NCBI GenBank assembly: GCA_964450185.1
Contig: CAYVCL010000002.1
Coordinates: 8,482-72,481, forward strand
Source: an uncultured Lachnospiraceae bacterium
GTDB taxonomy: Bacteria; Bacillota; Clostridia; Lachnospirales; Lachnospiraceae
Reading direction: 5' to 3'
DNA length: 64,000 bases
The first letter of the stretch is position 1. Each line of letters opens with the position of its first letter. Both the position numbers and the translations under genes were made by a program. The notes beneath the pieces were generated by a model. The model made no database searches and was not told the DNA's origin. It worked only from the letters and a program-made list of their open reading frames with translations. Positions 3,172-58,920 of this stretch are shown piece by piece.

Positions 3172-3174
3172 GGA

Positions 3175-7560: not shown

Positions 7561-7574
7561 ATCTACCTCCAATG

Positions 7575-7745
7575 CACCCACTATCGTTACATTTTACAGT
7601 ATAGCACATCAGCCTCAATTTTCACACCACCAAGTTAACATTTTTTCTAATGAATGTATCACCAACTTCCATTTTACCCACCACTAAGTTAACAAACAGA
7701 AAAATGGTGGATATTATTTTTCAAATACCCACCACTAAGTTAACA
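7575..7745. repeat. Phased direct repeats (consensus TACCCACCACTAAGTTAACA) in the divergent control region
   Basis: There are two identical 20-mers TACCCACCACTAAGTTAACA at 7675-7694 and 7726-7745. A close variant TTCACACCACCAAGTTAACA lies at 7621-7640, and a degenerate copy CACCCACTATCGTTACA at 7575-7591. Spacing is about 47, 54 and 51 bp. Each full copy contains the palindrome GTTAAC. Confidence 0.8.
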
Positions 7746-32040: not shown

Positions 32041-32054
32041 ATATACTTCCTCTT

Positions 32055-40020: not shown

Positions 40021-40259
40021 TGACTTGCCTCCTTATTTTGGTTACACCAAGAAACATTATAACAAAGATATTATCTTTTATAAAGCAAAATTCACAATTT
40101 TTTAAAGAACTTTAAGAATTTAGATTTATCTTGTCGCTTTTTTCCTTTAAATTTCAGGTGGTTATTAATATTTTTTTTCATTAGTTTATGTTTTGTTGCT
40201 TTCTTTATTCTACTTTGCTAAAATATTTTCAAATGTTTTTAGTAAAGGAAGGAACTTTT

Positions 40260-40916
40260 ATGCATATCAAAATTATTACGATTCCATCGACACTCAACTA
40301 TTCCCATCTGCTTTCCTATCTCCCACTTATATCTAAGGCTCGCCAAGAAAAAATTTCAAATTACCAACATGAACCCTCCAAAATTACGTCCCTATTGAGT
40401 GAACTTCTTATTCGATATACTATATGTCATCAACTACACCTAAAAAATACTGATATTACCTTTTTTACAAACTCCTATAGAAAACTTTTTTTACAGAATG
40501 TATCAAACTTTCAATTTTCATTATCTCATTCTCAAAATGGAATTGCCTTTGCTTTCCATCATCTTTCTATGCCTATAGGTATTGATATAGAAGAAATTTC
40601 GGCACCTCATTTTGATATTGCCAAACGTTTCTTTACCCAATCTGAAAATGATTATATCCATTCTCATCAAAACCCTACCGAAGCCTTTTATGAAATATGG
40701 ACCCAAAAAGAAGCTTATGTGAAAATGAAAGGAACCGGTTTCATTAACATTTCTCCATCTGATTTTGATGTCACCACACCTAAAAAAAAGCCCCTACTTT
40801 TCACACAAAAAGTAGGAACTTTTATGGTATCTTTGTGTCGTGAAGAAGCCATTACAGCCAAACCTGACATCGAAATGCTTTCCCTCCATCAGATACTTAC
40901 ATTTTTTACTGTTTAA
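40260..40916 (+). CDS. Sfp-type 4'-phosphopantetheinyl transferase
   Basis: Motifs GIDIEE and WTQKEAYVKMKG. ATG 40260 (AAAGGAAGG upstream) preferred over 40188. Its 3' end overlaps the convergent thioesterase gene by 11 nt. Confidence 0.85.
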   Translation: MHIKIITIPSTLNYSHLLSYLPLISKARQEKISNYQHEPSKITSLLSELLIRYTICHQLHLKNTDITFFTNSYRKLFLQNVSNFQFSLSHSQNGIAFAFHHLSMPIGIDIEEISAPHFDIAKRFFTQSENDYIHSHQNPTEAFYEIWTQKEAYVKMKGTGFINISPSDFDVTTPKKKPLLFTQKVGTFMVSLCREEAITAKPDIEMLSLHQILTFFTV

Positions 40917-41628
40917 CTTCATTTCTTTCTATTGTGGTTTGAATGATATTTAACATTTTTTCCTGATTTTCAAATTCCTCAAATAAAAAGAAGTGTCCAC
41001 CGTTTAATTCATGAAAAATCATTTTTTCTCCATACAGTTTTTTCCAATCCTCCATCTCTTTTTGAGGATACACCTCATTGCTACCACGAACAACAACTGC
41101 AGCACCTGAAATTGTCGGAATCTCTGTATCTGCCTTATAATGCTCAATCGCACTATAATCATTTACTACAATCTGTTTCATTAATTTCATCATTTCTTCA
41201 CATTCAAGAATTTCCTCCGGCGTCCCACCCATCTGAGTCAACAATTCTTTCACCTGCTCTACTGTCATGTTTTCACATTCCGTAAATTCCGGTTCTGTCC
41301 CAGGTGGTTCACTTGCAAGAAAAAAAACTGCTTCCGGCAAACGTTTTTTTTCCTTTTCTATCACTTTTAATAATTCATAGCAAACCAAACTTCCCATACT
41401 ATATCCTAATAAGCAATAGGCTTCCTCCAATTGTTCCTTCATGCTTCTATAAGCCTCCAATGCCATTTCTTCTATGCGATTTAATAATGGTTCCATAAAA
41501 CGAGCTCCATGTCCCGGATATTCGTATGGTATAATCTCAAACTCAGTTTCTACATTTTTACTCCATTCATAGAAAACATTTGCATTTCCCACAGCATACG
41601 GAAATGCAAAAATCTTTATTCTACTCAT
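40906..41628 (-). CDS. Type II (editing) thioesterase
   Basis: 240 aa alpha/beta hydrolase with the nucleophile elbow GYSMGS and C-terminal NGGHFF. ATGA overlap with the upstream gene. Confidence 0.85.
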   Translation of the reverse strand: MSRIKIFAFPYAVGNANVFYEWSKNVETEFEIIPYEYPGHGARFMEPLLNRIEEMALEAYRSMKEQLEEAYCLLGYSMGSLVCYELLKVIEKEKKRLPEAVFFLASEPPGTEPEFTECENMTVEQVKELLTQMGGTPEEILECEEMMKLMKQIVVNDYSAIEHYKADTEIPTISGAAVVVRGSNEVYPQKEMEDWKKLYGEKMIFHELNGGHFFLFEEFENQEKMLNIIQTTIERNEVKQ

Positions 41629-42407
41629 AAAATGGAAATGGCATAGATGATTGCCATTATTGTACCTGCTGCGACCATAACAATTCCTGTAATGCGGTTC
41701 ACCTTTACGGAATCTGTTCTATTAGCGTATCTCGAAGACCAAACTGCACCAATAGCTGTAAAAATAATACACAAAATCAACACCGGCCAACTGGCTACTT
41801 TACTTACGGTAAAGTGTGTAATTGCTCCTAATAATGCTGTAAATGTCATAATAAACACACTGGTTCCGACTGCCTTTTTCAGACTGTATCCCATAAAGAT
41901 AGTTAATGCAATTAGCATATTCATACCTCCACCAGAACCTGTAATTCCACAAATCAACCCAATCCAGATTCCCGAACCTACCGCCATAATAATGTTCCAC
42001 ACTTTCGAACGATTTTTATTTCGTTCACTTTCCTCTGAGGATGGTTTAATAATAAATTTTAAACCCATTAGAATTAATAAATAAATGGACACATTTCCCA
42101 TCACGGTTTGTGGAAAAAAAGAAGCGATATAACTACCAATTAAAGTTGCTGCCAAAACTGCTATCATCATATAAATACTATTTTTAATATCAATGTTCTT
42201 CTGCTTATGATAAATAATTGCTGAAAATGCGGAGGCAAGCACATCAGAAGCAAGGGCAATTCCTACCGCATCATATGGTGAAATTCCTAAAAAAGTAATT
42301 AGGAACGGACTAATAATAACTGCCGCTGACAGTCCAGCAAATCCTGTTACAACACCGGCTCCAAGACCTGCTACTGCACACACTATAAGTATTGTTAACA
42401 TTTTCAT
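41625..42407 (-). CDS. TSUP (TauE/SafE) family membrane permease
   Basis: 260 aa with 7-8 TM segments and internally duplicated halves with G-rich helices (GLGAGVVTGFAGLSAAV / GITGSGGGMNM). Lies between NRPS-B and the thioesterase. Confidence 0.7.
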   Translation of the reverse strand: MKMLTILIVCAVAGLGAGVVTGFAGLSAAVIISPFLITFLGISPYDAVGIALASDVLASAFSAIIYHKQKNIDIKNSIYMMIAVLAATLIGSYIASFFPQTVMGNVSIYLLILMGLKFIIKPSSEESERNKNRSKVWNIIMAVGSGIWIGLICGITGSGGGMNMLIALTIFMGYSLKKAVGTSVFIMTFTALLGAITHFTVSKVASWPVLILCIIFTAIGAVWSSRYANRTDSVKVNRITGIVMVAAGTIMAIIYAISIL

Positions 42408-42413
42408 TTACTC

Positions 42414-45400
42414 CTATTCTTTATAACCTAATACTACTAATACATCTTCTATCTGTTTCTTCGTAACCTTTGGCCATTCAAAACCCAATCGCGTTAATAT
42501 TGCACAAGTTTTATCATTCTTATATTGATATGCAAGTGTCTGCTTAATTTCTCCATCTGCCATTGTTAAAGTTAAAAGATGTGACATATCGTTGCTTAAT
42601 TCTTTCAAATGTCCGAATACATATTCAAAAAATGCTTTTATTTCCATGATATTTACATTCATTTCGTTTTCTCTGCAATACTGTGCGAAACGTCCTAAAC
42701 TCATACGGTCTGAATTAAAAATATGATAAATATGACCTTTTTCTTTTACTTTCATAAGTGCAAATACTGCCTTCGCCGCATAATCAACATAGGTCATATC
42801 GAACATTTCTCCCCTCATGTCGGGTACGTGTCCGATACGCAATATAGTTTCTAACATTTGGAATAAGGCATTTTCTTCCGCATTCATCTGAAAAATTCCT
42901 CTTTCGTAGCTTTGTACCAAAAATCCCAAACGGAAAATTTTTACCCTCTTTCCACTTTGTTGCATTTTTTCCACAATTTCTTCTGCATTAATTTTGGATT
43001 GAATATAAAAATTATCTGATTTTTCTCCAACACTGGTGTAATCTTCCGTGTATGCAACATCCGACTCGTTTCTTCCTAAAGTATATCCTGCCGACAAGGT
43101 AGAAATAAATATAAATTGTTTTTCTCGCCCTTGTTCCATAAGCTCTGCAACATGCTTTGTTCCCTGAATATTTATTTTTTCAAATACGGACCATAAACCA
43201 TAATGTTTCACAAGCGTTGCTGCATGAATGATACAATCTACCTTCTCACCGAGCCATTGATACGTTTCTTCTTTCATACCCATCCGTTCATCCGAAACAT
43301 CTCCCTCAAGCACTGTAATACGATGCTTAAATTCTTGATACAAATTTCTTTCCGGAACATAAAATTTCAAAGCATTTTCAAAGCGTTCTTCTACTGTTTC
43401 TTCTGTTTTAGTTGCACGTATCAAAGTTGTTACTTTTGCATTGGTTTGCAATAAAATTTCCACAATTAAATGTGCTGCAAAAAATCCGGCTCCTCCGGTA
43501 ATAAAATAATGTTCAAAGTCATCTGTCTGTTGGAATGAAGGAGCTTGATATTTCATCTTATATTTCTCATATGCTTCTGTAAAATATGCCGTAGCCTGAT
43601 AAGATTCCATCATTTCTACCCATTCTTCTAATCTTTGGGCATTTTTCAAATCCATATTTTCACTAAAAACTGCCACTTTTGCTATTTGTTCAATTGTATT
43701 ATATCGGAAAATATCCGGTAATTGAATTTTTAATCCTTGCTTTTCTGCCATAGAAATGAATTTCATTCCTTTGATGGAGTTTCCGCCAAGTTCAAAGAAA
43801 TTTTGTCTGACACCTATATTTTCTCTTTCCAAAACCTGTTGCCAAATCTGTAAAATCAGATTTTCTTTTTCATTCTCCGGCTGCATATATCTGGTATCCT
43901 CTTCCACTTTTACCATTGGAAGTGCCTTTCTATCTACCTTTCCATTGACACTTAATGGAAACTGTTCCAATTTTACAAACGCCGATGGTATCATATATAC
44001 TGGAAGCGTCTTTTCTAGTCGCCCCTTTAATTTTTGTAAATCAACACTATCTTTTGCTCTTTCTGTATAGAATAACACTAAACAAGTATCCGCCTTCTCC
44101 TGTTTTTGCACAACAACAACCGCATCCTTAACTGTTTCTTCTTCGGTTGCTTTTGCTTCGATTTCTCCTATTTCAATACGAAATCCCCTGATTTTTACCT
44201 GACCGTCTATTCTGCCTGTAAATTCAATGTATTCTCCATGAAATATTCCTGTATCACCGGTTCGATATATACGACCATAATCCGGATGCTCTACAAATAC
44301 TTCTTGTGTTTTTTCCATATCGTTGATATATTCTTTTGCAATGCCAATACCCCCAATGCAAATTTCTCCACGTACACCGTTTGGACATAATTGCATTTGT
44401 TCGTCCATAACATATATTTGTTGATTCTTCAATGGCATACCATAAGGAATGCTTTTCCACTTTGCTTGTAAAGATTTAGGAATCGGATAATAAATAGACC
44501 AAATGGATGCCTCCGTAGCACCGCCCAAACTGGTTACATTAGCTTTTGAAAAATGTTTTCTTATCTGTTCCGGAAGTTTTAATGGAATCCAATCTCCACT
44601 AAGTAATATATTTTTTAAGGTATCATTTTTACAATCTTCCTGTATAGTCAAAAACATCTCTATTACAGCCGGAACCGAATTCCAAAATGTTACTTGTTCT
44701 TCTTTCAACAAGTGTGCAACTTCTTTTACATTTCTCTGTTCCTTTACCAATGCCAATTTTGCCCCTGTAGAAAATGCTCCAAAAATATCATACACAGATA
44801 AATCAAATCCAAATGATGACAACCCAATCAGACAATCGCTTTCTGTTACTTCAAATTTCTCATTAATATCTGCAACCGTATTGGCAGCTCCATTCTGAGT
44901 AATGACTACTCCTTTGGGCTGTCCTGTACTTCCCGAAGTAAAAATAACATACGCAACATCTTCCGGTCTTACATTTTCAGCCTGATAACTTCTGCAATTC
45001 TTTATTTCTACATCATTTAAAAAATCTTCTTTTATGACTAACCTACATTCACTATGCCGGATTATGTATTCCCTTCTTTCTTCCGGATACTCCATATTAA
45101 TTGGCACATATGCACAGCCATATTTCAATACCCCTACAATATAAATAAGTGTAGATATCTGTCGATGACCTTCTATTGCAATATATGATTTTTTTGGTAT
45201 TTTCTTTTCTTGTAATCTATATGCTACTTCATCTGATAAGCGTTCCAATTCATAATAAGTCAGCCTTTTATTATCTGCAACAACAGCTATATTTTCAGAA
45301 TATTTTGAAAATGCCTGTTTCATCATATCGTTTAATGTCAGTTGCTTCTTCTGGTATAACGCCTGTGCTTCTTCATAGGTATCATTATATTTCTGATATT

Positions 45401-48400
45401 GTTCTTTTACATATTCAGGTAATTGTATTTTTCCCTCTTCTTCTGTTCCAATACTATTTAACAATTCTATATATTGTTGAAACATTCCATCAATTTGTTC
45501 TTCTTCCCAAATTTCCATCGGATAATCCCACACAATAGATAGCATTCCGTTTTTTTCTGTTACCTGATTATCCAGATATACCTGTGGCGTTCGGGAGATA
45601 GAATAAGTTTCTTCCAATAATGAATATTTCACTTTTTCATCTTCTGAATATAATGCACAGGTAAAAATATATGGCATTGCCGCTTTCGTTCCTAATGCAT
45701 ATTTATTTGAAATATCCCTTATAAATTCCACACCGCTGTAATTGCTATGCTCCAAAGTTTCCACCAATGTCTGATTCGTTTTCTCTACTTTGTCCCAGAA
45801 ATGTTTTTTCTCTCTAAAATCCATTTCTACTAACATAATTCTGGTAAAATCTCCAACCAACTCCGCAACCTGCGGGTTAAATGCATAACGATCAAACACG
45901 GTTAAATCTAATGCAAAGTGATTTTGTCCACTCCAATGCTCCAATATCACTCCATACGCTGTACACAAGATTGCTGCTGGTGTTACCTGATACTTAACTC
46001 CTAATCTTTTAATGGTTTCCCACTGTTTCTTTTCAAGGAGTATACTTTTTCTTTGAAATGTTGGTATTTTTCCTTTCACACTTTCTGTATCTACTACTAA
46101 AGCAGGGGCTAATGGAAATTCATCGATTTTTTGCTTCCAATACTGTTTATCTTCTTCATAAATCTCTGATTCTTTCAATTTCTCCATTGCCACGCAGTAA
46201 TCTCTAAAAGTAAATTCTGATTCCTTTACCTCCAACTGTGTATCTTGATAATAAGCCATCAATTCCCGTTCCACCATCAGCAAGCTGGCAGCATCTACAA
46301 CTAATATGTCAATTCCAAAACAAATTTTAACTCTTGTTTCACTTAAGCGATACGCTTCCATTCGAAACAATGGCCATTGTTCTAAGTCAAAAACCTCCTC
46401 TGACATTTCTTTACGAATACTCTTTAATATATTTTCCTGCTCCTTTTTTGATAACGTTGAAATGTCATGATATGGAATTTCATACTTCTCTACTGTTTTC
46501 AGAATTTTCTGAGAATTCCGACTTGATAATACCGTTCGTAACATTGCATGTTTTGCAATTACCTTATTGAGAGCCTCTTCCATTCTTTCAATTTCGACAT
46601 TACCATCCAACTCCGTATAATAATGTGTAGAAAATCCTCCTAATTCAAACTCTACACTTCTTCCCATAATGTATGCCTGCTGTATTTCATTACACTGGAA
46701 TTCTTCATACTTTTCCTTCGTGTTAGGTTTTACATATTTCAAATGTTCCGGCAACAGTCTTTTTTTACGAATTCCGGTTCCATCATCAGCGTCAATCATG
46801 GCACTTAATGCTTTGATTGTCTGATTTTGATACAGCTCTGAAAGACTAAAAAACAATCCCTTTCGCTCGCCTTGTGCCACCAATTTCATGCCTTTTATAG
46901 AATCTCCACCTAATACGAAGAAGCTTTCATTAACTCCTATTTCTTGCCTACCAAGCACCTCACTCCATAAGAGTAACATTCTTTCCTCTGTATATGTGGT
47001 TGCGCATTCTTTTCCTATATTATTCTGGGCCGCCATTATCTTCAACGAATTTTTATCTACCTTTCCGCTTTCTTTCATCGGAAATTCATCTAATCGAATC
47101 AATACTGTTGGTATCATATATTCCGGCAATAAACATTGTAATTTTTCTAGTATCTTTTGTTGTGACTGTTGCTTTGAGGAAATATAGAATGCCCCCATAC
47201 TCTTATCACCACTTGCTTCTGTCTGATATACGACTACTTCCGCAGCATCTATCTCCTCCATTCCATTCATCGCATTCTGAATTTCTTCCAACTCTATACG
47301 AAAGCCCCTTATTTTACATTGATTATCTTTTCTCCCAATAAAATACAGACTGCCATCTTCATCCTCCCAAACATAATCTCCTGTAGAATACAAACGTTCC
47401 TCTGAGATTTCCGGAATCCTTACAAACTTTTCATTGGTTAATTCTTCATTTCCAACATACTCTAATGCAACTCCCGCACCGCCAACATAAAGCTCTCCAG
47501 GCAGGTTTTTGCATTGAAGATTTCCAAAGCAATCCACAACATATCCCGAACTATTATCTAACCTTTTGCCAATAGGTAATGGATTGGTATCGTTTTCCTT
47601 TACTAAATGCCATGTAGAACACACTGTATTTTCTGTTGGTCCATATGCATTGATTATCATTGCTTCTTTATTTATCTGTGCAGCCCTTTTACCTGTTTCG
47701 AAAGAAAGAACATCTCCACCGGTAAATATGTATTTCATACCATCGAATATTTTTGCATTTTCTTGTACCATCTTAGTAAACAACGGTGTCGAAAAAAAGC
47801 CGGCTGTTATCTTTTCTTTTTTTATTATTTCTCTTAAACGTTTCAAATCCAACAGTTCTTCTTTTTCAACAATTCTTAAACTCCCTCCATGCAATAATGC
47901 TTCATACATTTCTAACGTTGAGGCATCGAATGCCGGTGTACTTGCCTTTATAAATTTATCTTCTGATGTAAGCTGCACCAATTCTTGCCCAAACACCAAC
48001 CGAATAATTCCTTTTTGAGAAATCAATACGGCTTTGGGTGTTCCGGTTGAACCAGAGGTACACATAATATACGCTGGTGCCTCTGCTGTGATTTCTACTT
48101 GTTTTGGCTTATTTTCACTAACCTGTAATTTTACTTCAAGAATTTGATAGTCTTCCAAATAATCCACACTACTCTTAGATACTGCCATAATACAGCCACT
48201 ATTTGGTATTACATTTAACATTTTTCTCACTCGTTCTTGTGGTGCTTTTGAATCTATCGGGAGATATACTCCTCCTACCTTTAAGACTGCTAAAATAGCC
48301 ACTACCATTTCTATCGAATTTTCGCCATGTAAAATTACTACATCACCCTTTTTTATACCACACTGCTGTAATGCATAAGCGTTAGTTTCTATATATTTTT

Positions 48401-49859
48401 GCACTTCTCGATAGGAATATTTAGATTTGCTGTCTGATAATGCTATTTTGTCCGGATATTGTTTCACTTTTTCATCAAATATCTGAATCAAATTTTTCCG
48501 AAATTGCGGAAGCTCCTTCTCCTTGTTACAACTGCATATATATTCCTGCAACTCCTCTTTTTCCATTAAAGAAAAATCGCTAACTTTTTCATCTTTTCTC
48601 CCTATTGCCTGCTCTGCTAAAATCTCAAACCGCTTTACCATTTCTTCTATGAAATCTCTTGTATAGCTTTTACTGTTATATATAAAATTAAGTCTGAGAT
48701 TTTCCTCTGGTACTACAGCCAAAACAAATGGATAACTATTATTTTCTGTCATAGAAAATTTTTCCATACGAAGTACACCGTCTACATTTTCAAGAATCTG
48801 CTCGTACATATAATTCTCAAATACTACAAGATGATTAAATAGTTCTCCTTTGCGCCCTCCTGACTTTTGTATCTCGTTCAAAGGTGTATGCCAATATTTG
48901 CAAGCTTCTACAAATTCTATTTGCTTTTCCTGTACCAATGTATCAAAACTAATATTTCCCGTTTGATATCTTACCGGAATAGTATTAATAAACAAACCGG
49001 CAATGTCTTCTACATTTGCAATCTCTGTACTTCTTCCAGAAACAACCGTTCCAAATACAACATCCTTTTTATTCGTATATCTTTGCAACAACAAGCCCCA
49101 AATTGAAAGAAATACTACATTCATTGTGACACCTTGTGTTTTACAATATTCCTGCAATTTCTGATACAATTTCGAATTGATATTCACAGAATATTCTGCT
49201 TTTTCACTGCCTGCTTCTTTGCCTTTTTTGTATTCTATAATTTCCGATATATCTTCATATCCGTTTAAATATTGCTTCCAATACGATAAATCTGTTTTAA
49301 TATCTCGTTTTTCTAACCACGTAATATAGTTTTGATATGGAATCACAGGTTGCAGATTGAGTGATTTCTTCTTATGAATGCTTTCATAAATCTCTATTAC
49401 TTCTTTTGCTAATACCCCGACGCTATATGCATCCAAAATAATATGATGAAATGTCCATACAAATCTATAGGTTCCATCTGCTCGTTTAATAAGGAGAAAT
49501 TTACTAAGCGTATCTCTAGAAAGATTAAACTCTGTTTCCATTTCCATTTTACATATGCTTGCAATTTCTTCCTCAGTTCTAACATTTCTTATCTGAAAAT
49601 TCAGCTTTCCGCTCTTTTCTACTACTTGAATGGGCTCTTTCAATTTGTGATACAAAATTCTGGTTCTCAAAATTGGCTGCCGTTCTATCAATAGCTCAAA
49701 GGTTTTCTTTAAATCTTCTTGGGATATATCTCCTTGCAACTCCATAGAAGCCTGTCCCATATATAATCCTGTTTGAGGTTTTTTCATTATATGAAACAAC
49801 ATTCCCTGTTGTAATGGAGATAGGCGATACATCGCCTCAATATTTTCTCTTACTGCCAT
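42414..49859 (-). CDS. NRPS-B: C - A - T - Cy - A(Cys) - T - R
   Basis: Approximate domain ranges in nt:
- C 48567-49844 (LSPLQQGMLFH, HHIILDA).
- A1 47022-48494 (YIMCTSGSTGTPKAV, FDAS, NAYGPTE, GELYVGGAGVALEY, YSTGDY, GRKDNQCKIRGFRIE).
- T1 46782-46994 (GGDSI).
- Cy 45417-46709 (EIQQAYIMGR, DILVVDAAS).
- A2 43917-45344 (FTSGSTGQPKGV, FDLSVYD, SGDWIPL, LGGATEASIWS), with code DLYNLSLIWK = Cys.
- T2 43662-43874 (GGNSI).
- R 42417-43514 (TGGAGFF, YIQSK).
ATG 49859 (AGGAGA upstream) preferred over TTG 49886. Confidence 0.92.
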   Translation of the reverse strand: MAVRENIEAMYRLSPLQQGMLFHIMKKPQTGLYMGQASMELQGDISQEDLKKTFELLIERQPILRTRILYHKLKEPIQVVEKSGKLNFQIRNVRTEEEIASICKMEMETEFNLSRDTLSKFLLIKRADGTYRFVWTFHHIILDAYSVGVLAKEVIEIYESIHKKKSLNLQPVIPYQNYITWLEKRDIKTDLSYWKQYLNGYEDISEIIEYKKGKEAGSEKAEYSVNINSKLYQKLQEYCKTQGVTMNVVFLSIWGLLLQRYTNKKDVVFGTVVSGRSTEIANVEDIAGLFINTIPVRYQTGNISFDTLVQEKQIEFVEACKYWHTPLNEIQKSGGRKGELFNHLVVFENYMYEQILENVDGVLRMEKFSMTENNSYPFVLAVVPEENLRLNFIYNSKSYTRDFIEEMVKRFEILAEQAIGRKDEKVSDFSLMEKEELQEYICSCNKEKELPQFRKNLIQIFDEKVKQYPDKIALSDSKSKYSYREVQKYIETNAYALQQCGIKKGDVVILHGENSIEMVVAILAVLKVGGVYLPIDSKAPQERVRKMLNVIPNSGCIMAVSKSSVDYLEDYQILEVKLQVSENKPKQVEITAEAPAYIMCTSGSTGTPKAVLISQKGIIRLVFGQELVQLTSEDKFIKASTPAFDASTLEMYEALLHGGSLRIVEKEELLDLKRLREIIKKEKITAGFFSTPLFTKMVQENAKIFDGMKYIFTGGDVLSFETGKRAAQINKEAMIINAYGPTENTVCSTWHLVKENDTNPLPIGKRLDNSSGYVVDCFGNLQCKNLPGELYVGGAGVALEYVGNEELTNEKFVRIPEISEERLYSTGDYVWEDEDGSLYFIGRKDNQCKIRGFRIELEEIQNAMNGMEEIDAAEVVVYQTEASGDKSMGAFYISSKQQSQQKILEKLQCLLPEYMIPTVLIRLDEFPMKESGKVDKNSLKIMAAQNNIGKECATTYTEERMLLLWSEVLGRQEIGVNESFFVLGGDSIKGMKLVAQGERKGLFFSLSELYQNQTIKALSAMIDADDGTGIRKKRLLPEHLKYVKPNTKEKYEEFQCNEIQQAYIMGRSVEFELGGFSTHYYTELDGNVEIERMEEALNKVIAKHAMLRTVLSSRNSQKILKTVEKYEIPYHDISTLSKKEQENILKSIRKEMSEEVFDLEQWPLFRMEAYRLSETRVKICFGIDILVVDAASLLMVERELMAYYQDTQLEVKESEFTFRDYCVAMEKLKESEIYEEDKQYWKQKIDEFPLAPALVVDTESVKGKIPTFQRKSILLEKKQWETIKRLGVKYQVTPAAILCTAYGVILEHWSGQNHFALDLTVFDRYAFNPQVAELVGDFTRIMLVEMDFREKKHFWDKVEKTNQTLVETLEHSNYSGVEFIRDISNKYALGTKAAMPYIFTCALYSEDEKVKYSLLEETYSISRTPQVYLDNQVTEKNGMLSIVWDYPMEIWEEEQIDGMFQQYIELLNSIGTEEEGKIQLPEYVKEQYQKYNDTYEEAQALYQKKQLTLNDMMKQAFSKYSENIAVVADNKRLTYYELERLSDEVAYRLQEKKIPKKSYIAIEGHRQISTLIYIVGVLKYGCAYVPINMEYPEERREYIIRHSECRLVIKEDFLNDVEIKNCRSYQAENVRPEDVAYVIFTSGSTGQPKGVVITQNGAANTVADINEKFEVTESDCLIGLSSFGFDLSVYDIFGAFSTGAKLALVKEQRNVKEVAHLLKEEQVTFWNSVPAVIEMFLTIQEDCKNDTLKNILLSGDWIPLKLPEQIRKHFSKANVTSLGGATEASIWSIYYPIPKSLQAKWKSIPYGMPLKNQQIYVMDEQMQLCPNGVRGEICIGGIGIAKEYINDMEKTQEVFVEHPDYGRIYRTGDTGIFHGEYIEFTGRIDGQVKIRGFRIEIGEIEAKATEEETVKDAVVVVQKQEKADTCLVLFYTERAKDSVDLQKLKGRLEKTLPVYMIPSAFVKLEQFPLSVNGKVDRKALPMVKVEEDTRYMQPENEKENLILQIWQQVLERENIGVRQNFFELGGNSIKGMKFISMAEKQGLKIQLPDIFRYNTIEQIAKVAVFSENMDLKNAQRLEEWVEMMESYQATAYFTEAYEKYKMKYQAPSFQQTDDFEHYFITGGAGFFAAHLIVEILLQTNAKVTTLIRATKTEETVEERFENALKFYVPERNLYQEFKHRITVLEGDVSDERMGMKEETYQWLGEKVDCIIHAATLVKHYGLWSVFEKINIQGTKHVAELMEQGREKQFIFISTLSAGYTLGRNESDVAYTEDYTSVGEKSDNFYIQSKINAEEIVEKMQQSGKRVKIFRLGFLVQSYERGIFQMNAEENALFQMLETILRIGHVPDMRGEMFDMTYVDYAAKAVFALMKVKEKGHIYHIFNSDRMSLGRFAQYCRENEMNVNIMEIKAFFEYVFGHLKELSNDMSHLLTLTMADGEIKQTLAYQYKNDKTCAILTRLGFEWPKVTKKQIEDVLVVLGYKE

Positions 49860-49878
49860 TTTTCTTCTCCTCGTGTTT

Positions 49879-50106
49879 CTAATCAAGTAACTGTTCTAAA
49901 ATAAATTCCATCTCATCTTCTTCCTGCTTTTTTAGTTGCCCCATTTCCTCCAACAACTGCTTTATCCACTGCTTTGAGAATAACCTTTTATCATAAGAAA
50001 GTTTCCAACATATCTGCTTATCTTCCACAAAAGCAACAACTGATAATGCTGCAATTCCTTCACCTTCTTCTGATACATTCTGCCCCACCTCTACCTGCTC
50101 TACCAA
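49879..50106 (-). pseudogene. C-terminal 75 codons of the NRPS-A epimerisation domain, cut off by an in-frame TAA
   Basis: Same reading frame as NRPS-A, directly after the TAA at 50107-50109. There is no ATG (the track start is TTG) and no SD. The sequence (…ALSVVAFVEDKQICWKLSYDKRLFSKQWIKQLLEEM…) is the expected continuation after the FNYLG motif. Confidence 0.65.
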
Positions 50107-53100
50107 TTATCCATAATTTTTACTATCAATGCTTCCCAAATAATTAAAATGAATTAACACAGGATAATCCTCAAATTCCGGTTCTGCCTGAAGAATAGCA
50201 AAACCCTTTCCTTTTTCCGGTACTTTACCCAATGTGTCATGAACTATATTTACCACACTATCTATATTTGCTTCTTGGCTTAATCCTTCAAATATTACGG
50301 GATAAGTATAACTAAACCAACCCATGGTATTTTGAATATCAATGTCATTACGCTCATCCTCTCTCCCATGATATTCCATTTCTACCATAATTCCATCTCT
50401 ATTACTCAATTTGGAAAATGCCTTTAAGAATACTGCCAACAGATATTCTTCTATATCTTTTCCCGGCAATATAGACTTTTCTCCTCTTTGTTCTATCCTC
50501 TTCAATTCGAATTCCCTTACTCCGTCCAGTAGCTGCCATGATTTATTTAGCTCCAATCCCTTTTTCAATACATCAAGCCAATAATCACTATCCTTTTGTG
50601 TTGTTTTTTTCATATACGCAGCCCACTCCATATATGAAGTTTCTGCCTGATAATTTCCTATCGTTTCTCCCTGCTTTCGCTTCGTATAGATTTCCACAAA
50701 ATCATTTAATAATAATCTCAATGACACACCATCCGTAAGCAAATGATGAACAAAGAAATACAGTTTTGCTTTTTGCTTCCATTCATAATAAGCAATACCT
50801 AATAATGGTCCTTTTTCTATGTCAAATTTACTTTCAAGCAAATCATTTTCTCTTTGAATTTCTTCTTCTGATTCTATCTTTTTATAACAAAAAACATAAC
50901 TTTTTTTCAAAAAACTTCTATCTCTTGTGCTACTTTCAAATTGATTTCCTTTTTTTACAAATACCGTTCTTAACACATCATGATATTTTAACAAATCCTC
51001 AATGGTTTCCTGTAACACAACTTCTTGTAATCTTTCCGTTAATGTAATACTTATATACTGATTCCAACGATTTCTTCCCTGTTTGATTTTACGGAAAAAC
51101 CACTGTTGAGCTGGGGTTATCGGATACGTTCCCTGTACATCCTGATACTCTTTTACACCATTATATTTTTTCATAATTGTTGCTAACAATTCTATCGTTG
51201 CATGTGTATATAATTCTTTCATATCCACTTGATATCCTAATCGCTTTAATGCGGAAAGAATTTGTATCGCTTTAATGGAATCTCCTCCTAAGGAAAAAAA
51301 GTTTTGATTTACTCCAATCTCTTCGATTCCAAGAATTTGTTTCCATAACTGCAACAATAATTTTTCTTCTTCATTTTTCGGTGTATGCAGTACATTTTCT
51401 TTGTATTTCATCTGCAATAATTTCGTCCTGTCAACCTTTCCATTACTTGTTAATGGCATTTCAACAATCTCCACTAATTGAGAAGGGATCATATAAGCCG
51501 GCAATTTTTTCTCTAACGCATTCCGAATCTCCAGTTCGCTCTGTTCTTTTGACAAACAATAGAAAGCAAGAATTCTTTTGAATTGTTCTCCTTCCACCAA
51601 CACACAGGCTTCTTGTATTCCTGCAATTCCAAGTAATGCCACCTCAATTTCTCTGGTTTCAATCCTATAACCATTTACCTTTACCTGCGCATCTCTCCTT
51701 CCCAAAAACTCAATCTGTTCATCACATCTATGCATTTTTCCGTAATCACCTGTATGATAAATCCTTCCAAATGGTGCTTGGTTTTTAAACGCTTGTTCCG
51801 TTTTTTCCTTATCATTTAGATATCCGTCCGCTACGCCAATGCCTCCAATACAAATTTCTCCTGTAACTTCCGGTGGACAAAGTTTTCCTTCTTCATCCAG
51901 TACATATATTTTCTGATTATCTAATGGTGAACCATAGGGAATGCTATTCCACTGCTCTTTTACTTCATCAATCACATAAGCTATAGACCATATAGAAGCC
52001 TCTGTCGCACCTCCTAAGCTTACTACTCTTGCATTTTTGAAGCACTGCTTCAATCTTCCCGGTAATGTCAGTGGAATCCAGTCACCGCTCAAAAAAAAGT
52101 ATCGCATTTTTGAATACGCATACTCTTGCTTTCTTTCACTCAACAATAATTCACATAATGCCGGAACAGAATTCCAAATAGTAACACCTTCTTCCCGACA
52201 TAACTTTTCCAATTCTTCCCCATTTTTTTGTTCCTGTACAAGTACTAAAGTAGCACCTGCAAAAAATGTACCAAACACATCATATACCGATAAGTCAAAA
52301 CACAACGAAGATATTCCTAAAATCACATCTTTTTCATTTACTTCAAACCTCGCATTCATACTTTTAATTGTATTTACTGCAGATTGATTTGATATAACCA
52401 CTCCCTTAGGTTCTCCCGTACTACCGGACGTAAATATCACATATGCAGGACGTTCCCAATCTTTCTTTGTCCCTTTTTCCAATAATACTATTTTTTTATT
52501 TCCATTATTTTCCAATTTCGTCCAGTCGAAAGGTTCTAATAAAATTCTACTCTGACTTTTCTTCAATATGAATTCTACCCTTTCCTTTGGATATTCTTCT
52601 AATATTGGAACATATGCCGCTTTACATTTTAAAACTCCAAGAATATTCAAGAGTGTACTAATATCACGTCTTGCACTGACTCCAATATATTCCCCCGGTT
52701 CCACTCCATTTTCTAATAATTGTTCTTTGATTTGTTCTGATAAATTCCACAATTCTTCGTATGTAATTTCTTCTTTATCGCTTTTTATTGCAATTTTTTT
52801 AGGAGCTTTGCAAACGCCTTGATAAACTAACTCCACTAATGTTTCCGGCTCCCATTTTTGTTCTGTTTGATTATAATTTTTCCATAATTCTGCATCTTCT
52901 GGAAGCAATTGAAATATATCCGAATCAGCCTTTCCCAGACTTTGCTCAAGCAATGCTATCATCTGATTTCCCATGATTTTTAAAGATTTTTCATCCATGT
53001 ATTCTACTGCATAATCCCATGTGACAAGAAGTTTTCCATGATATTCCGTTGCCTGACAATCCAACATAACCTGAGGTGTCTGACTTATTCCATATTCTAA

Positions 53101-54213
53101 CTCCCCAAAGAAATCCAAAATTTCAAAAGGATCTTCTTTAAACAGCATACTGGTAAATACAATTGGCATAATTGCCTTTGTCCCCATATTTCGCTGTCTG
53201 GAAAGTTCTCGCATGACCTCTATTCCATTAAAAGTATTATGTCGATATGACAATAACATTTCTCGGGATACTTGCTTTGCTACTTCAAACAAACCTTTGT
53301 CTTTGTAAAATCCCTGCTCTATTCCCACTAACAATGCCGTTGTATAATCACCTACCAACGTGTTTTCCTTATATTTACCTCGTTCGGACATAGTCAGATT
53401 GATTGTAAAATCTTTGTTTTCGCTCCATTTCCCCAACACCATAACATATGCTGCGAGTACTATGGATGTTGGTGAAAGCCCTTTCTGTTCTGCGCGTTTT
53501 TTTATAAACTGCCATTTATCTTTTTCAAGATTTAATGTAATTCTTGAAATCGGACTTACCAACTCTTTTTCTGCATTTTTTGTTTGTTTTGGCACCGGAA
53601 GTACCGGTGCCATCGGAAGTGTATCTAACTTTTTCTGCCAATACATCTTGTCTTTTTGATAGCGTTCTGATTGCTTTAACACTTTTTGCTTCTCTATATA
53701 TTCTTCATAAGATGCTGTTAAAACTTCCACTTCTTTATAGGGACAATTATAATATTTTTCTAGTTCTCGTCCAATCAGACACAAGCTACTGCTGTCCGCA
53801 ACCAGCATATCAAAAGAAAGAAGTAACACATTTTTTTCTTCTCCCATTTTTATATAAAGAAAACGATATTGAGGCCATACTGCCGGGTCTGTGCTTTCTA
53901 AAAACATCTCTACCCTTTTTTCTTTCAAAATTTCTTCTTTTTTGGATTTTTCTTCCTTTTGTAAATCAAGGATTGGTATCTGATATCTCGGAACTTCTTC
54001 CATAATCATCTGCTCATTTTCATTAAAAATACGAGCTCTTAACATTCCTTGTTGCTTAATCACTTTATTCATTGCCTCTTCCAATTTATTCGGGGCTAAT
54101 TCTGTCCTAAATTGATAGCATATATGTGTCGATGTGCCTCCAAGTTCAAACTCTTTCCGCCTTCCCATATAATAGGCTCTTTGAACGTCTGACAGTTCAA
54201 ATATTTGCTTCAT
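50107..54213 (-). CDS. NRPS-A: Cy - A(Cys) - T - E (E domain interrupted by a stop codon)
   Basis: Approximate domain ranges in nt:
- Cy 52909-54213 (LSDVQRAYYMGR at residue 7, FDMLVADSS).
- A 51424-52851 (FTSGSTGEPKGV, FDLSVYD, SGDWIPL, LGGATEASIWS), with code DLYNLSLIWK = Cys.
- T 51169-51381 (GGDSI).
- E from 51141 (PITPAQQWFF, HHLLTDG, EYHGRE, GWFSYTYP, FNYLG). Confidence 0.9.
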   Translation of the reverse strand: MKQIFELSDVQRAYYMGRRKEFELGGTSTHICYQFRTELAPNKLEEAMNKVIKQQGMLRARIFNENEQMIMEEVPRYQIPILDLQKEEKSKKEEILKEKRVEMFLESTDPAVWPQYRFLYIKMGEEKNVLLLSFDMLVADSSSLCLIGRELEKYYNCPYKEVEVLTASYEEYIEKQKVLKQSERYQKDKMYWQKKLDTLPMAPVLPVPKQTKNAEKELVSPISRITLNLEKDKWQFIKKRAEQKGLSPTSIVLAAYVMVLGKWSENKDFTINLTMSERGKYKENTLVGDYTTALLVGIEQGFYKDKGLFEVAKQVSREMLLSYRHNTFNGIEVMRELSRQRNMGTKAIMPIVFTSMLFKEDPFEILDFFGELEYGISQTPQVMLDCQATEYHGKLLVTWDYAVEYMDEKSLKIMGNQMIALLEQSLGKADSDIFQLLPEDAELWKNYNQTEQKWEPETLVELVYQGVCKAPKKIAIKSDKEEITYEELWNLSEQIKEQLLENGVEPGEYIGVSARRDISTLLNILGVLKCKAAYVPILEEYPKERVEFILKKSQSRILLEPFDWTKLENNGNKKIVLLEKGTKKDWERPAYVIFTSGSTGEPKGVVISNQSAVNTIKSMNARFEVNEKDVILGISSLCFDLSVYDVFGTFFAGATLVLVQEQKNGEELEKLCREEGVTIWNSVPALCELLLSERKQEYAYSKMRYFFLSGDWIPLTLPGRLKQCFKNARVVSLGGATEASIWSIAYVIDEVKEQWNSIPYGSPLDNQKIYVLDEEGKLCPPEVTGEICIGGIGVADGYLNDKEKTEQAFKNQAPFGRIYHTGDYGKMHRCDEQIEFLGRRDAQVKVNGYRIETREIEVALLGIAGIQEACVLVEGEQFKRILAFYCLSKEQSELEIRNALEKKLPAYMIPSQLVEIVEMPLTSNGKVDRTKLLQMKYKENVLHTPKNEEEKLLLQLWKQILGIEEIGVNQNFFSLGGDSIKAIQILSALKRLGYQVDMKELYTHATIELLATIMKKYNGVKEYQDVQGTYPITPAQQWFFRKIKQGRNRWNQYISITLTERLQEVVLQETIEDLLKYHDVLRTVFVKKGNQFESSTRDRSFLKKSYVFCYKKIESEEEIQRENDLLESKFDIEKGPLLGIAYYEWKQKAKLYFFVHHLLTDGVSLRLLLNDFVEIYTKRKQGETIGNYQAETSYMEWAAYMKKTTQKDSDYWLDVLKKGLELNKSWQLLDGVREFELKRIEQRGEKSILPGKDIEEYLLAVFLKAFSKLSNRDGIMVEMEYHGREDERNDIDIQNTMGWFSYTYPVIFEGLSQEANIDSVVNIVHDTLGKVPEKGKGFAILQAEPEFEDYPVLIHFNYLGSIDSKNYG

Positions 54214-56430: not shown

Positions 56431-57138
56431 CTACCATTCTAATTCTTCCGGCTTCTTTACTTCTTCATTATGTATAAGCTTCATATTCACGCCATCCTTA
56501 ATTTTCACAACCCAATCTCCCATCTCCTTGATTGCTTCATTATGAGTAACCATTAGTATGGTCATTCCATACTTTTCTTTTACTTTATTCAACAATTTCA
56601 AGATTTCTATAGACATATTATGGTCTAATGCCCCTGTAGGTTCATCGCAAATAAGAACTTTTGGATTTTTTGCCAAAGCTCTTGCAATTGCTACTCTCTG
56701 CTGTTGTCCTCCTGATAAATGTCTTGGAAACTTTTTTTGATGCTCTGTTAATTCCAAAACTTCCATCAACTCATCAATATCTAATGGATTTTTTGCCAGA
56801 TTTTTTCCTGTTTCAATATTTTCCTTTACGGTAAGATTTGATATTAGATTATAGAACTGAAAAATATGTCCCAGATATTCTCGTCTGTAATAGGTAAGTT
56901 CCTTATTGCTCATTTTCGCAATATCCACCCCATCAAAAAGAATACTCCCAGCATCTGCACTTTCTAAGCCACCAATCAAATTCAATAAGGTTGATTTTCC
57001 GGAACCGGAAGGACCTAAAATAACAAACATACTTCCTTCCTCTATTTCTAAATTTACCCCCTTTAAAACCGCTGTACGATTTTCTTTTTCCCCATATTCT
57101 TTTCTTAAGTCCTCTATTTTGTACAATACTTTCTTCAT
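56431..57138 (-). CDS. ABC transporter ATP-binding protein (MacB/LolD type)
   Basis: Walker A GPSGSGKST, signature LSGGQQQRVAIARAL, Walker B VLICDEPT. ATGA overlap with the radical SAM gene. Confidence 0.92.
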   Translation of the reverse strand: MKKVLYKIEDLRKEYGEKENRTAVLKGVNLEIEEGSMFVILGPSGSGKSTLLNLIGGLESADAGSILFDGVDIAKMSNKELTYYRREYLGHIFQFYNLISNLTVKENIETGKNLAKNPLDIDELMEVLELTEHQKKFPRHLSGGQQQRVAIARALAKNPKVLICDEPTGALDHNMSIEILKLLNKVKEKYGMTILMVTHNEAIKEMGDWVVKIKDGVNMKLIHNEEVKKPEELEW

Positions 57139-58397
57139 CTTTTTTCCTCACTTTCATATACAAATTTTTCATAGAATACTGCACTTTTTCCAGATACAAC
57201 ATATTCTGCTGCAACTCGTTTACTCTCTTCCCGACTAATCGGAGTTCTAGACGTATCAACATTCATTTTCTTCATAATTGCTCCCACTTTTCGTCCATAA
57301 CACGTTTTTCCTGCGTTCTTAAAATACTTTTCCATCTGTTCAAAAATATCCTTGATGGATTCTTTATATACATTACCAAACGAAAGCGGTACTGCTACAC
57401 ATGGAGTAATTTCCCCATCATTATTTACCGAAATATAGCCTGCTCCTGCAGAACACCCAAAACAATAGGCACTTTCAAATTCAGAAAACAGCACAATAAT
57501 TGGCGCACTCTCCTCTTCCAAATATTTTGCTCGCATTTGATTTACCATTTTCTTTGCTTCCACATAATTAAATTTTACCGCCGACCCCTCTATTTTCCCT
57601 TGAGGAATCGGCATAACAACCCTAATTTCCTGCACGCCCAAAGTTTTTACAAATTCAAAATATTCCTCCATGTCTTTCAATGTAAATTCTTCTAAAATGC
57701 AAATAGTAAGAACTGTATATATTCCATTTTTCACAAGTAATTCTACCGCTTGTATGGTTTCACGAAATGCATTTTTGTTATTTCTCGTTTTTATCACAAA
57801 TTCTTCTTTATGAAAATCCAAGCTAATAATGATACGATCCATATTACTGTGTTTTAACATATCACAAAATTCCTGAGTAATATTATGTCCCGTTGTATAA
57901 AGCTGTCCTCTGATTCCATCCGGAATCTTTTCAATCAGCTCATTAATATCTTCTCGCAACATCGGCTCACCACCAGTAATTCCCATTGTAGCTACACCCA
58001 TATCATATGCATCTTTATAGATATCCCAAATAGTTTCTCGCTTTAAATCTTGTCTACAATGCTTTATTCTATAACAATGCCAACAATTACAATGACATCT
58101 TCCCGTAACTACTACGTCCAACTGATATAACTGTCGCTTTTTATCCTGAAATCGTTCTAGCGATTCTAATAAACGCTCCCATGCCTTTGATGGAAATGCC
58201 GGAAAAAAACTATTTAAAAAATATTCTCCTGTTCTTTGGTTATAAATCAGTTTTTCATTTCTGCTTTCCCAAAAATTTGCGATTGCATTTGTCATTTTAT
58301 TTTTTGAACTGTTAAGAATTATCTCTCTAATTTCTGTAGCATCTACAATTTTTCTAAATTCCGACATTCTTTTGTTTCCCTTCATTTCCGCTTTCAC
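57135..58397 (-). CDS. Radical SAM enzyme with a C-terminal twitch/partial-SPASM-like Cys motif
   Basis: CX3CX2C (GRCHCNCWHCY), GGEPML, and a C-terminal CFGCSAGAGYISVNNDGEITPC … CYG segment. There is an N-terminal extension of about 95 aa of unknown type. The start is ambiguous (GTG 58397, ATG 58385 or ATG 58367). Confidence 0.8.
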   Translation of the reverse strand: MKAEMKGNKRMSEFRKIVDATEIREIILNSSKNKMTNAIANFWESRNEKLIYNQRTGEYFLNSFFPAFPSKAWERLLESLERFQDKKRQLYQLDVVVTGRCHCNCWHCYRIKHCRQDLKRETIWDIYKDAYDMGVATMGITGGEPMLREDINELIEKIPDGIRGQLYTTGHNITQEFCDMLKHSNMDRIIISLDFHKEEFVIKTRNNKNAFRETIQAVELLVKNGIYTVLTICILEEFTLKDMEEYFEFVKTLGVQEIRVVMPIPQGKIEGSAVKFNYVEAKKMVNQMRAKYLEEESAPIIVLFSEFESAYCFGCSAGAGYISVNNDGEITPCVAVPLSFGNVYKESIKDIFEQMEKYFKNAGKTCYGRKVGAIMKKMNVDTSRTPISREESKRVAAEYVVSGKSAVFYEKFVYESEEKR

Positions 58398-58401
58398 AAT
58401 G

Positions 58402-58656
58402 CTAACAATTTTCTTCTTTCACTTGTGACATTTTTTCCTTAACTCGTGCTTTTAAATCCCCTACGGTCACAAACTCTGTAATATCAGCATCATCAAAATT
58501 AATATTTAATCTTTCTTCCAACTCCATGATTAAGTCTACATAATCTAAAGAATCCAAACCTAACTCTTCTGCAATTTTTGTTTCATCTGTAATTTCTTTA
58601 GCCTCTCTATCTATATAAGGCAACACTAATTCAATAAATAATTTATCTAATTCCAT
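58402..58656 (-). CDS. Stand-alone acyl/peptidyl carrier protein
   Basis: 84-aa acidic protein with the phosphopantetheine attachment site ELGLDSLDYVDLIMELE. GGAGGAAG RBS. First gene of the NRPS operon. Confidence 0.85.
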   Translation of the reverse strand: MELDKLFIELVLPYIDREAKEITDETKIAEELGLDSLDYVDLIMELEERLNINFDDADITEFVTVGDLKARVKEKMSQVKEENC

Positions 58657-58760: not shown

Positions 58761-58789
58761 ATATTAGCACACAATAACCACTGCGTCAA
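58761..58789 (-). promoter_or_regulatory. Sigma-A-type promoter of the NRPS operon
   Basis: On the minus strand: TTGACG (58784-58789), a 17-nt spacer, then TGcTAATAT (extended -10; TAATAT at 58761-58766). It predicts a leader of about 95-100 nt. Confidence 0.65.
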
Positions 58790-58866: not shown

Positions 58867-58917
58867 AAAAAAATAGGGTGTTTTAAAAGTCATATTCTAA
58901 CTTTTAAAACACCCTAT
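58867..58917 (-). terminator. Rho-independent terminator of the OPT / PqqD-like operon
   Basis: 18-bp perfect stem ATAGGGTGTTTTAAAAGT (58873-58890) / ACTTTTAAAACACCCTAT (58900-58917). On the minus strand it is followed by a T-run (A-run 58867-58872). Confidence 0.88.
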
Positions 58918-58920
58918 TCG

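Follow-up and report, generated by a model that had tools for sequence, protein, structure and literature searches.

The 64-kb window analysed here (the whole stretch of 64,000 nucleotides from contig CAYVCL010000002.1 of an uncultured Lachnospiraceae bacterium) contains a non-ribosomal peptide synthetase (NRPS) cluster on its minus strand that opens with the gene for a free acyl carrier protein (ACP), followed by that for a radical S-adenosylmethionine (rSAM) enzyme, and it is this pair that is the subject of the present work. Pfam and NCBIfam matches give the order ACP, rSAM, ABC ATPase, permease, NRPS-A, NRPS-B, TauE/SafE and thioesterase (Table 1). An earlier note on this DNA had the ACP at the head of the operon, and this is supported as a terminator-like hairpin and a promoter-like site precede the ACP gene, which therefore opens the operon. 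Judged by gene content and by conservation in relatives, the ACP and the rSAM enzyme are a real, conserved and uncharacterised enzyme-carrier pair, and the rSAM enzyme probably modifies a starter unit by an undescribed oxygen-free radical chemistry.

The carrier had been described as an acidic protein of 84 residues with the motif LGLDSLDYV, a description that is borne out by a PF00550 match of 44.6 bits (cutoff 20.8) and by a content of 24 D+E against 10 K+R. The phosphopantetheine serine lies in LGLDSLD(YV) and aligns with Ser36 of Escherichia coli AcpP. The protein scores under every AcpP equivalog cutoff in NCBIfam and is therefore not the housekeeping ACP. The suggestion that ACPs of the window's kind of locus (type 2, see below) are unusually AcpP-like, which would hint at loading by FabD, was rejected as identity to AcpP is only 23%.

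The rSAM open reading frame (ORF) starts from a GTG 4 nt past the ACP stop codon, and as a reading frame the 420 residues previously given for it stand; however, Met11 is nearly invariant amongst 40 homologues and the database entry P0001 has 410 aa, so the true start is probably the ATG at 58367, which would give 410 aa. A PF04055 match of 71.5 bits (cutoff 29.5) places the enzyme in the radical SAM superfamily. Both the CX3CX2C motif near residue 100 (C101-X3-C105-X2-C108, in CHCxCWHC) and the GGEPM motif (142-146), which the earlier note had picked out, are invariant in an alignment of 40 sequences. The C-terminus gives a partial match to PF13186 (SPASM) of 29.9 bits (cutoff 21.5), in which residues 315-356 cover positions 1-49 of a profile of 67; in the alignment of 40 sequences C315-X12-G-X4-C333 and C366 are invariant, C233 is conserved in at least 90% of sequences, and the CX2CX5CX3C motif of the two-cluster SPASM subfamily was not found. 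With only C315, C333 and C366 and no second SPASM motif, the domain is of the twitch type with a single predicted auxiliary cluster, which agrees with the twitch or partial SPASM domain first proposed, and these three cysteines are the predicted ligands of that Fe-S cluster.

Profile and structural searches assign the rSAM enzyme to no characterised family, as the earlier reading of it as a candidate for undescribed biochemistry would have it. It rises above no NCBIfam cutoff, the best score being 90 bits against cutoffs of 225-850 (archaeal MoaA 90 against 325, NirJ2 88, AhbD 83, and SkfB, TIGR04403, 54.2 against 300). The best match in a PDB sequence search is SkfB (6EFN; E = 1.5e-11, residues 29-354), and the Foldseek neighbours of its AF2 model (pLDDT 92) are SuiB, SkfB, BlsE, PqqE, CteB, MoaA and DesII, with TM-scores of only ~0.5. 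A profile search of 1.84 billion representatives returned 620 rSAM clusters at E <= 1e-30, and none of 10 sampled members of this wider family reached an NCBIfam cutoff. No description of the rSAM enzyme or of an ACP-rSAM cassette was found in a full-text literature search that had most subscription journals outside its coverage, and a 2026 review of lipid-modifying rSAM enzymes does not describe the cassette. In this wider family (~620 clusters at 50% identity) the distant members include enzymes that adjoin or are fused to class I SAM methyltransferases; these methyltransferase-linked members (P0095, P0096, P0098, P0173, P0175 and P0202; L013, L015 and L016) come from archaea, Victivallales, Bacteroidales and Clostridia and likewise reach no NCBIfam cutoff.

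The N-terminal ~85 residues of the rSAM enzyme contain a strongly conserved NSFFPxFPxxAW motif. There is no Pfam PqqD match in the protein, a profile of residues 11-92 has no match in the PDB at E <= 10, and hhalign of the same residues with a PqqD-like protein of the window gives a probability of 0.1%; the model of the isolated domain (pLDDT 90) has no significant match amongst PDB folds by Foldseek, the best E-value being 1.2. A RiPP (ribosomally synthesised and post-translationally modified peptide) recognition element (RRE), a candidate prompted by the position of the domain and by the whole-protein neighbours SuiB, SkfB and CteB, was rejected since the isolated domain matches none in sequence or fold.

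Table 1. The NRPS cluster and its upstream boundary, in window positions
Feature	Position	Strand	Basis
Terminator-like hairpin, end of upstream OPT/PqqD operon	58918..58872	-	sequence scan
Promoter-like site, TTGACG-17 nt-TAATAT with TG-n before TAATAT	58761..58789	-	consensus scan only
Free acyl carrier protein, 84 aa, operon gene 1	58402..58656	-	PF00550
Radical SAM enzyme ORF, 420 aa from GTG	57135..58397	-	PF04055
Family-specific N-terminal domain of rSAM, residues 11-92	58122..58367	-	alignment, model
CX3CX2C cluster motif of rSAM (C101, C105, C108) within CHCxCWHC	58074..58097	-	alignment
Twitch (truncated SPASM) segment of rSAM, C315-X12-G-X4-C333 + C366	57294..57461	-	PF13186, alignment
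ABC ATPase, MacB-type exporter	56431..57138	-	Pfam/NCBIfam, synteny
FtsX/MacB-type permease, 734 aa	54216..56420	-	Pfam, synteny
NRPS-A, Cy-A(Cys)-T-E, truncated ORF	50107..54213	-	Pfam, motifs, PDB matches
NRPS-B, DCL-A-T-Cy-A(Cys)-T-R; probable ATG at 49859	42414..49886	-	Pfam/NCBIfam, motifs
TauE/SafE-family anion exporter	41625..42407	-	Pfam
Type II thioesterase	40906..41628	-	Pfam
Sfp/AusB-type phosphopantetheinyl transferase	40188..40916	+	Pfam/NCBIfam

NRPS-A does begin, as had been claimed, with a true heterocyclisation (Cy) domain at residue 1, in which DMLVADSSS replaces HHxxxDG; its top eight PDB matches are all Cy domains, from BmdB (1e-66) through EpoB, Irp2/HMWP2 and PchE (to 1e-33), and the alignment runs from residue 3. 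As this domain (Cy1) aligns almost from its first residue to solved Cy domains and has no adenylation (A) and thiolation (T) domains in front of it, its donor is needed in trans. The last condensation-type domain of NRPS-A, with HHLLTDGVS, had been taken for a condensation (C) domain, a reading that fails as its best matches are the epimerisation (E) domains of TycA, GrsA and BacC, making the protein Cy-A-T-E. NRPS-B opens with a domain that matches the DCL condensation domains of TycB1 and SrfA-C, and its second condensation-type domain is a Cy domain with DILVVDAAS. A slot for the free ACP between tandem C domains at the NRPS-A/B junction was considered and rejected, the first of the two being an E domain and the second a DCL domain. 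Specificity codes, extracted against a GrsA fragment, are DLYNFSLIWK (Cys) for the A domain of module 1, DALTFGAVCK for module 2 and DLYNLSLIWK (Cys) for module 3. The full architecture is thus Cy-A(Cys)-T-E / DCL-A-T-Cy-A(Cys)-T-R, its last domain being a reductase (R) for aldehyde release, and from the domain order the expected product would be an acyl-(D)-thiazoline-Xaa-thiazoline aldehyde. By Pfam there is no flavin oxidase (Ox) domain in the cluster.

The contexts of relatives of the rSAM enzyme were collected from gene neighbourhoods and from a metagenome scan with the pattern CHCxCWHC[FY]R, annotated against our own reference set; a pattern scan of genome contigs was dominated by generic TGGEPM and recovered one true member of the family. 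In every informative locus (~25 related loci) the rSAM gene lies beside priming machinery, be it an ANL ligase with an ACP, a ligase with a T-R protein or an initiating FabH-like ketosynthase (KS), and in ~15 distinct loci, belonging to types 1-3 and part of type 4, the ACP and rSAM genes are adjacent or overlapping. The ABC ATPase gene adjoining the rSAM gene is conserved in most Firmicutes loci.

Type 1 loci (Ruminiclostridium papyrosolvens, L001/L002; L010/L011) are ordered ANL ligase-ACP-[Cy-A-T-R]-rSAM-ABC-FtsX, and the NRPS of R. papyrosolvens is also Cy-first, with DMLIADAGS and 38-39% identity to Cy1 of the window. Type 2 loci have the order ACP-rSAM-ABC-FtsX-NRPS-A-NRPS-B and no ligase, and comprise the window with its near-identical relative L006, L007-9, and Eubacterium sp. 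L100/L117-119; their upstream neighbours differ by lineage, being the OPT/PqqD genes, an IS1182 transposase with cysE, and a sugar ABC operon. The earlier expectation that the ACP-rSAM pair would be found with Cy-starting NRPSs elsewhere is confirmed in five distinct lineages. The rSAM enzymes are 52-56% identical between types 1 and 2 and 69-78% identical amongst the three type 2 lineages, the type 1 ACPs are orthologous and 31-36% identical to that of the window, and at a coarse level the order of relatedness is alike for ACP and rSAM, namely type 2, type 1 and then the rest. Directly upstream of the ACP in L007 (316-2770) are the IS1182-family transposase and the serine O-acetyltransferase gene, cysE, which may support the supply of cysteine to the two Cys modules.

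Type 3 loci, whose members include those of Acetivibrio clariflavus, Clostridium isatidis and Paenibacillus as well as several from metagenomes, combine the ligase-ACP-rSAM genes with Cys-rich precursors, an HExxH membrane protease (daptide/YydH-like), a BtrH/DarH-like acyltransferase, a 133-aa protein, transporters and often a methyltransferase. Putative lipidated-RiPP clusters of this kind lie at L003 282-10441, L005 2031-11971, L092 169-11873 and L106 753-12012; they encode several precursors of 45-69 aa, in which a leader ending ...ELxxR[DE]E[YF]x precedes a CT..C..C core, and the literature search found no description of the class. In type 4 loci (Haliovirga and Chitinispirillaceae amongst them) the rSAM gene accompanies a FabH-like beta-ketoacyl-ACP synthase III (KASIII), and the pair may be joined by an ACP, an ABC-FtsX exporter, a TetR regulator or a ferredoxin-flavodoxin protein. 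The last is a ~280-aa ferredoxin/flavodoxin-like protein seen beside rSAM-KASIII in Gram-negative loci (L094 12307-13152; L120 6923-7786; L121 10301-11149) and is possibly a dedicated reductant of the rSAM enzyme. A further locus, L108, reads ligase-[T-R]-ABC-FtsX-rSAM. Two apparent gene fusions, one with rSAM joined in frame in mid-ACP (L103 1125-2246) and one of rSAM with FtsX (L113 4328-6811), were rejected as Rosetta-stone evidence, both being truncated chimeras without the twitch domain. Across these loci the shared denominator is acyl-thioester priming and not a Cy domain, cysteine or a peptide, and on this gene content the rSAM enzyme is better described as a starter-unit enzyme common to several offloading systems.

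The sequences show gene content, domain types and conserved synteny, and from these we infer the order of events, the action on an ACP-bound substrate and all of the chemistry that follow. The reading that we prefer, to which we would give an even chance, is that the ACP-rSAM pair is a starter-unit cassette in which the rSAM enzyme tailors a thioester-tethered starter that is then condensed with cysteine by Cy1. The phosphopantetheinyl transferase of the cluster would phosphopantetheinylate the free ACP, which would then bear a carboxylic-acid starter as a thioester, loaded in relatives by the stand-alone ANL ligase; the rSAM enzyme, using a 5'-deoxyadenosyl radical and its one auxiliary Fe-S cluster, would modify the tethered starter with no need for oxygen. 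From the architecture, the ACP would hand its modified acyl group to Cy1, which would form a 2-substituted thiazoline with cysteine, the E domain, DCL-A-T, Cy-A(Cys)-T and R would complete an acyl-thiazoline-Xaa-thiazoline aldehyde, and the MacB-type pump would presumably export it. The candidate reactions for the rSAM enzyme are, in order of rank, a two-electron oxidation or desaturation, a plain or oxidative radical decarboxylation, and the formation of a C-C or C-S bond. The proposal that the ACP presents the starter to Cy1 and the rSAM enzyme acts on it whilst tethered was already in the earlier note, and it gains from the coarse co-inheritance of ACP and rSAM and from their conserved adjacency, with the amendment that the cassette is not specific to NRPSs.

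How the ACP would be loaded differs between the clades. Pfam scans of large ORFs and tblastn found no adenylating enzyme, KS or acyltransferase (AT) for the ACP in the 64 kb, the only matches to three ligases from related loci being the NRPS A domains; as the other ORFs are housekeeping genes, there is no loader in the whole window, and the statement that no ACP-charging enzyme is encoded in the cluster survives this re-inspection. A dedicated ACP ligase is absent from the window and from the two other type 2 lineages and present in type 1 and type 3 relatives. The loading route was earlier called unexplained, which is right for the clade of the window but not in general, since relatives carry an ANL ligase directly upstream of the ACP. 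With the stand-alone ligase absent, the window clade would have to rely for loading on a housekeeping enzyme or on one whose gene lies at another site; possible loaders are a ligase not linked to the cluster, the FabD or fatty-acid synthase of housekeeping metabolism, the type II thioesterase of the cluster, or a Cys A domain acting in trans. The last of these forms part of an alternative in which the Cys A domain of NRPS-A loads the free ACP in the ligase-less clade and the rSAM enzyme modifies the aminoacyl-S-ACP before Cy1 uses it as donor. The cluster has no other loader, two Cys-specific A domains are encoded, cysE immediately precedes the ACP gene in L007, and the A domain of HMWP2, which loads several carrier domains, provides a precedent; nevertheless the orthologous type 1 ACPs use a dedicated ANL ligase that is not for amino acids, despite the similarity of both their ACPs and their rSAM enzymes to those of type 2, and a change of substrate class, whilst possible, is not parsimonious, so we regard trans-loading with cysteine as very improbable.

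A second alternative places the rSAM enzyme late in the pathway, where it would act on an NRPS-bound or released thiazoline peptide, for example in the anaerobic oxidation of thiazoline to thiazole or in a thioether cross-link to Cys sulfur, the adjacency to the ACP reflecting only co-regulation. Twitch/SPASM enzymes include dehydrogenases and thioether synthases, SkfB is the best PDB sequence match, no flavin Ox domain is found in the cluster, and types 1-3 all put an acyl group next to cysteine, whether by means of a Cy domain or because the core peptide begins close to Cys. We nonetheless think a late role unlikely, since members of this rSAM clade are also found at loci that encode neither a Cy domain nor cysteine, namely the ligase-[T-R] locus and those with KASIII, and since in type 2 the rSAM gene is coupled to the ACP gene whereas transporter genes lie between it and the NRPS. 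The occurrence of one clade with lipo-RiPP-like genes, KASIII and ligase-[T-R] also means that a thiazoline role is not the function of the family; a thiazoline oxidase or thioether synthase was rejected as the family function on the grounds that L108 and the KASIII loci have no Cy domain or cysteine. Of the two substrates offered in the earlier note, starter or thiazoline product, it is thus the tethered starter that is favoured.

The rSAM enzyme could instead act early, making a free unusual carboxylic acid from a primary metabolite in the manner of NosL, which a ligase or KASIII (via the CoA ester, in type 4) would activate so that the ACP carries a finished starter. Its link to priming enzymes of two kinds rather than strictly to an ACP is in accord with this, as are the precedent of NosL/NosI/NosJ and the association of the wider family of ~620 clusters with methyltransferases rather than carrier proteins. 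It is difficult to reconcile with a window clade that has no ligase and yet keeps ACP and rSAM coupled and under constraint, unless the ligase is elsewhere, and the overlap or near-overlap of ACP and rSAM is the most conserved gene junction. Action on a tethered starter, which stands at about even, is favoured over a route in which a free acid is made first and loaded afterwards, to which we accord only a small probability.

Several observations weigh against the tethered-starter reading. At least five type 4 loci have rSAM and KASIII but no dedicated ACP, so a carrier gene next to the rSAM gene is not a requirement, and the enzyme could act on an acyl-CoA or a free molecule. The lipo-RiPP-type loci hold precursor peptides that an SkfB-like enzyme could modify instead. 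The solved relatives nearest the type 1 ligase are FadD13, oxalate-CoA ligase, MenE and 4CL, and the starter need not be a fatty acid. Finally, the window has no loader and its NRPS-A is truncated, so that the pathway may be inactive in this strain.

The truncation is due to an in-frame TAA at 50109..50107 (-) in the E domain, at codon 1369; the frame stays open for 75 codons past it, to 49879, which gives the natural length of 1444 aa. In L006, a Logan assembly of a strain with 99.6% identity, the codon is GAA, and an 8.1-kb deletion (window 50045..41921) has taken out the whole of NRPS-B together with the 5' part of TauE, joining window 50046 to 41920 at L006 16290/16291 so that NRPS-A runs into out-of-frame TauE sequence. 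That near-identical strains carry two independent lesions suggests that selection on the pathway is relaxed in this species. From here it is a short step to supposing that the locus is decaying and non-functional in the window genome and that the missing loader is part of that decay, an explanation that we treat as a serious possibility, somewhat short of even; the loss of the last 75 aa of NRPS-A, the deletion in the sister strain and the truncated chimeric rSAM copies seen elsewhere (L103, L113) all fit. However, the lone TAA could be a sequencing error, and the absence of the ligase is common to three lineages with different upstream neighbourhoods whose NRPS genes are intact (1438-1445 and 2484-2486 aa), so that any decay is limited to the window species and the ligase-less design is ancestral to the clade. 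Furthermore, the rSAM gene of the ligase-less clade is under strong purifying selection (pN 0.14-0.22 against pS ~0.74), with all cluster ligands kept, and its ACP is under moderate constraint; the strong constraint on the rSAM enzyme indicates that the loss of the ligase is old and stable and not a recent decay.

Extending the tethered-starter reading to the whole family is more tentative, and we put it below an even chance. The family would perform oxygen-independent radical tailoring of carrier- or thioester-tethered starters, such as desaturation or an oxidative decarboxylation that leaves a terminal alkene, feeding four offloading routes of anaerobes (NRPSs that start with Cy, lipidated RiPPs, release by reduction, and fatty-acid synthesis primed by FabH), and its N-terminal domain would be a carrier docking module.

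Upstream of the cluster, a PqqD-like gene (58921-59295, -) overlaps the 3' end of an OPT oligopeptide transporter gene (59277-61181, -) and is followed by the strong hairpin. The PqqD-like protein was rejected as a partner of the rSAM enzyme, given this overlap, the terminator-like hairpin and its absence upstream of the ACP in L007 and L117, and it belongs to a separate operon, outside that of the NRPS. The 264-nt gap upstream of the ACP has no convincing small precursor ORF, and an Rfam scan of the window gave no match. Within the cluster, the TauE/SafE anion (sulfite or sulfonate) exporter gene lies between NRPS-B and the thioesterase gene. By Pfam the remaining genes of the window are housekeeping in nature (type I restriction-modification, ISL3 transposase, ComEC/ComEA, arg genes, TrkAH, DegV, ThyA/DHFR and PBP); the restriction-modification system (HsdR, HsdS, HsdM; 61-7581, -) adjoins the ISL3-family transposase, and two adjacent ORFs of 233 and 692 aa (31435-34133, -) have no Pfam match at E <= 1e-5.

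The closest characterised enzymes, SkfB, SuiB, CteB, BlsE, PqqE and MoaA, are all of the SPASM/twitch kind, and of these the twitch enzyme BlsE decarboxylates whilst SuiB, SkfB and CteB cross-link. SkfB, the thioether synthase of the sporulation killing factor, resembles the window enzyme in having an N-terminal extra domain, an rSAM core and a single-cluster twitch domain; it is however only third in the Foldseek ranking, with a TM-score of only ~0.55, and the TIGR04403 score is 54 bits against 300. Its substrate is a ribosomal peptide, whereas most loci of the window family are without a precursor peptide, and in contrast to SkfB the N-terminal domain of the window enzyme shows no detectable RRE similarity when taken alone.

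An N-terminal Cy domain fed by a carrier on a separate polypeptide, as proposed here, is known from EpoA-ACP to EpoB-Cy and from the aryl carrier protein (ArCP) to Cy transfers of pyochelin and yersiniabactin. The carriers of those systems have in-cluster loaders (the KS-AT of EpoA and the salicyl-AMP ligases PchD and YbtE) and the window has none; the coupling of an rSAM enzyme to the carrier is a further point of contrast with all three.

In JamABC and in the isonitrile lipopeptide cassettes ScoA-E/Rv0097-0101 a ligase loads a free ACP and the tethered starter is tailored before it passes to the NRPS, which in the isonitrile lipopeptide case ends in a reductase; the tailoring enzymes, the desaturase JamB and the Fe/2OG oxygenase ScoE, require O2. 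The layout of type 1 relatives is of this kind, with ligase, ACP, NRPS-R and tailoring enzyme, but the tailoring candidate is an rSAM enzyme of strict anaerobes and the window clade is without the ligase. To our knowledge tailoring of carrier-tethered starters is known almost exclusively from O2-dependent enzymes, and if our reading is true, strict anaerobes of the gut and rumen would have an rSAM enzyme dedicated to the same task, which would be a new reaction type for NRPS, RiPP and lipid biosynthesis. The CHCxCWHC motif beside an ACP would then be a genome-mining handle for unusual lipid-headed thiazoline aldehydes, which are plausible protease inhibitors, the ligase-less clade would raise the testable question of how an ACP is loaded without a nearby loader, and the type 3 loci would point to a class of lipidated RiPPs of which we found no description.

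In nosiheptide biosynthesis NosL, NosI, NosJ and NosN bring together radical SAM enzymes, an adenylating enzyme and a free carrier protein, from which the acyl group is moved onto a peptide, and the type 3 loci with their BtrH/DarH-like acyltransferase resemble this logic; NosL is ThiH-like and NosN HemN-like, and they belong to other rSAM classes with no twitch domain. Finally, the assembly line itself is like AusA (aureusimine) and the peptide-aldehyde NRPSs of gut Clostridia in that NRPS-B ends in T-R, the phosphopantetheinyl transferase is AusB-like and the source is a gut or rumen Firmicute. AusA is the best NCBIfam match of NRPS-B, at 1066 bits against a cutoff of 2500, and the line in the window differs from AusA in its two Cy domains, its E domain and the ACP-rSAM pair at its head.

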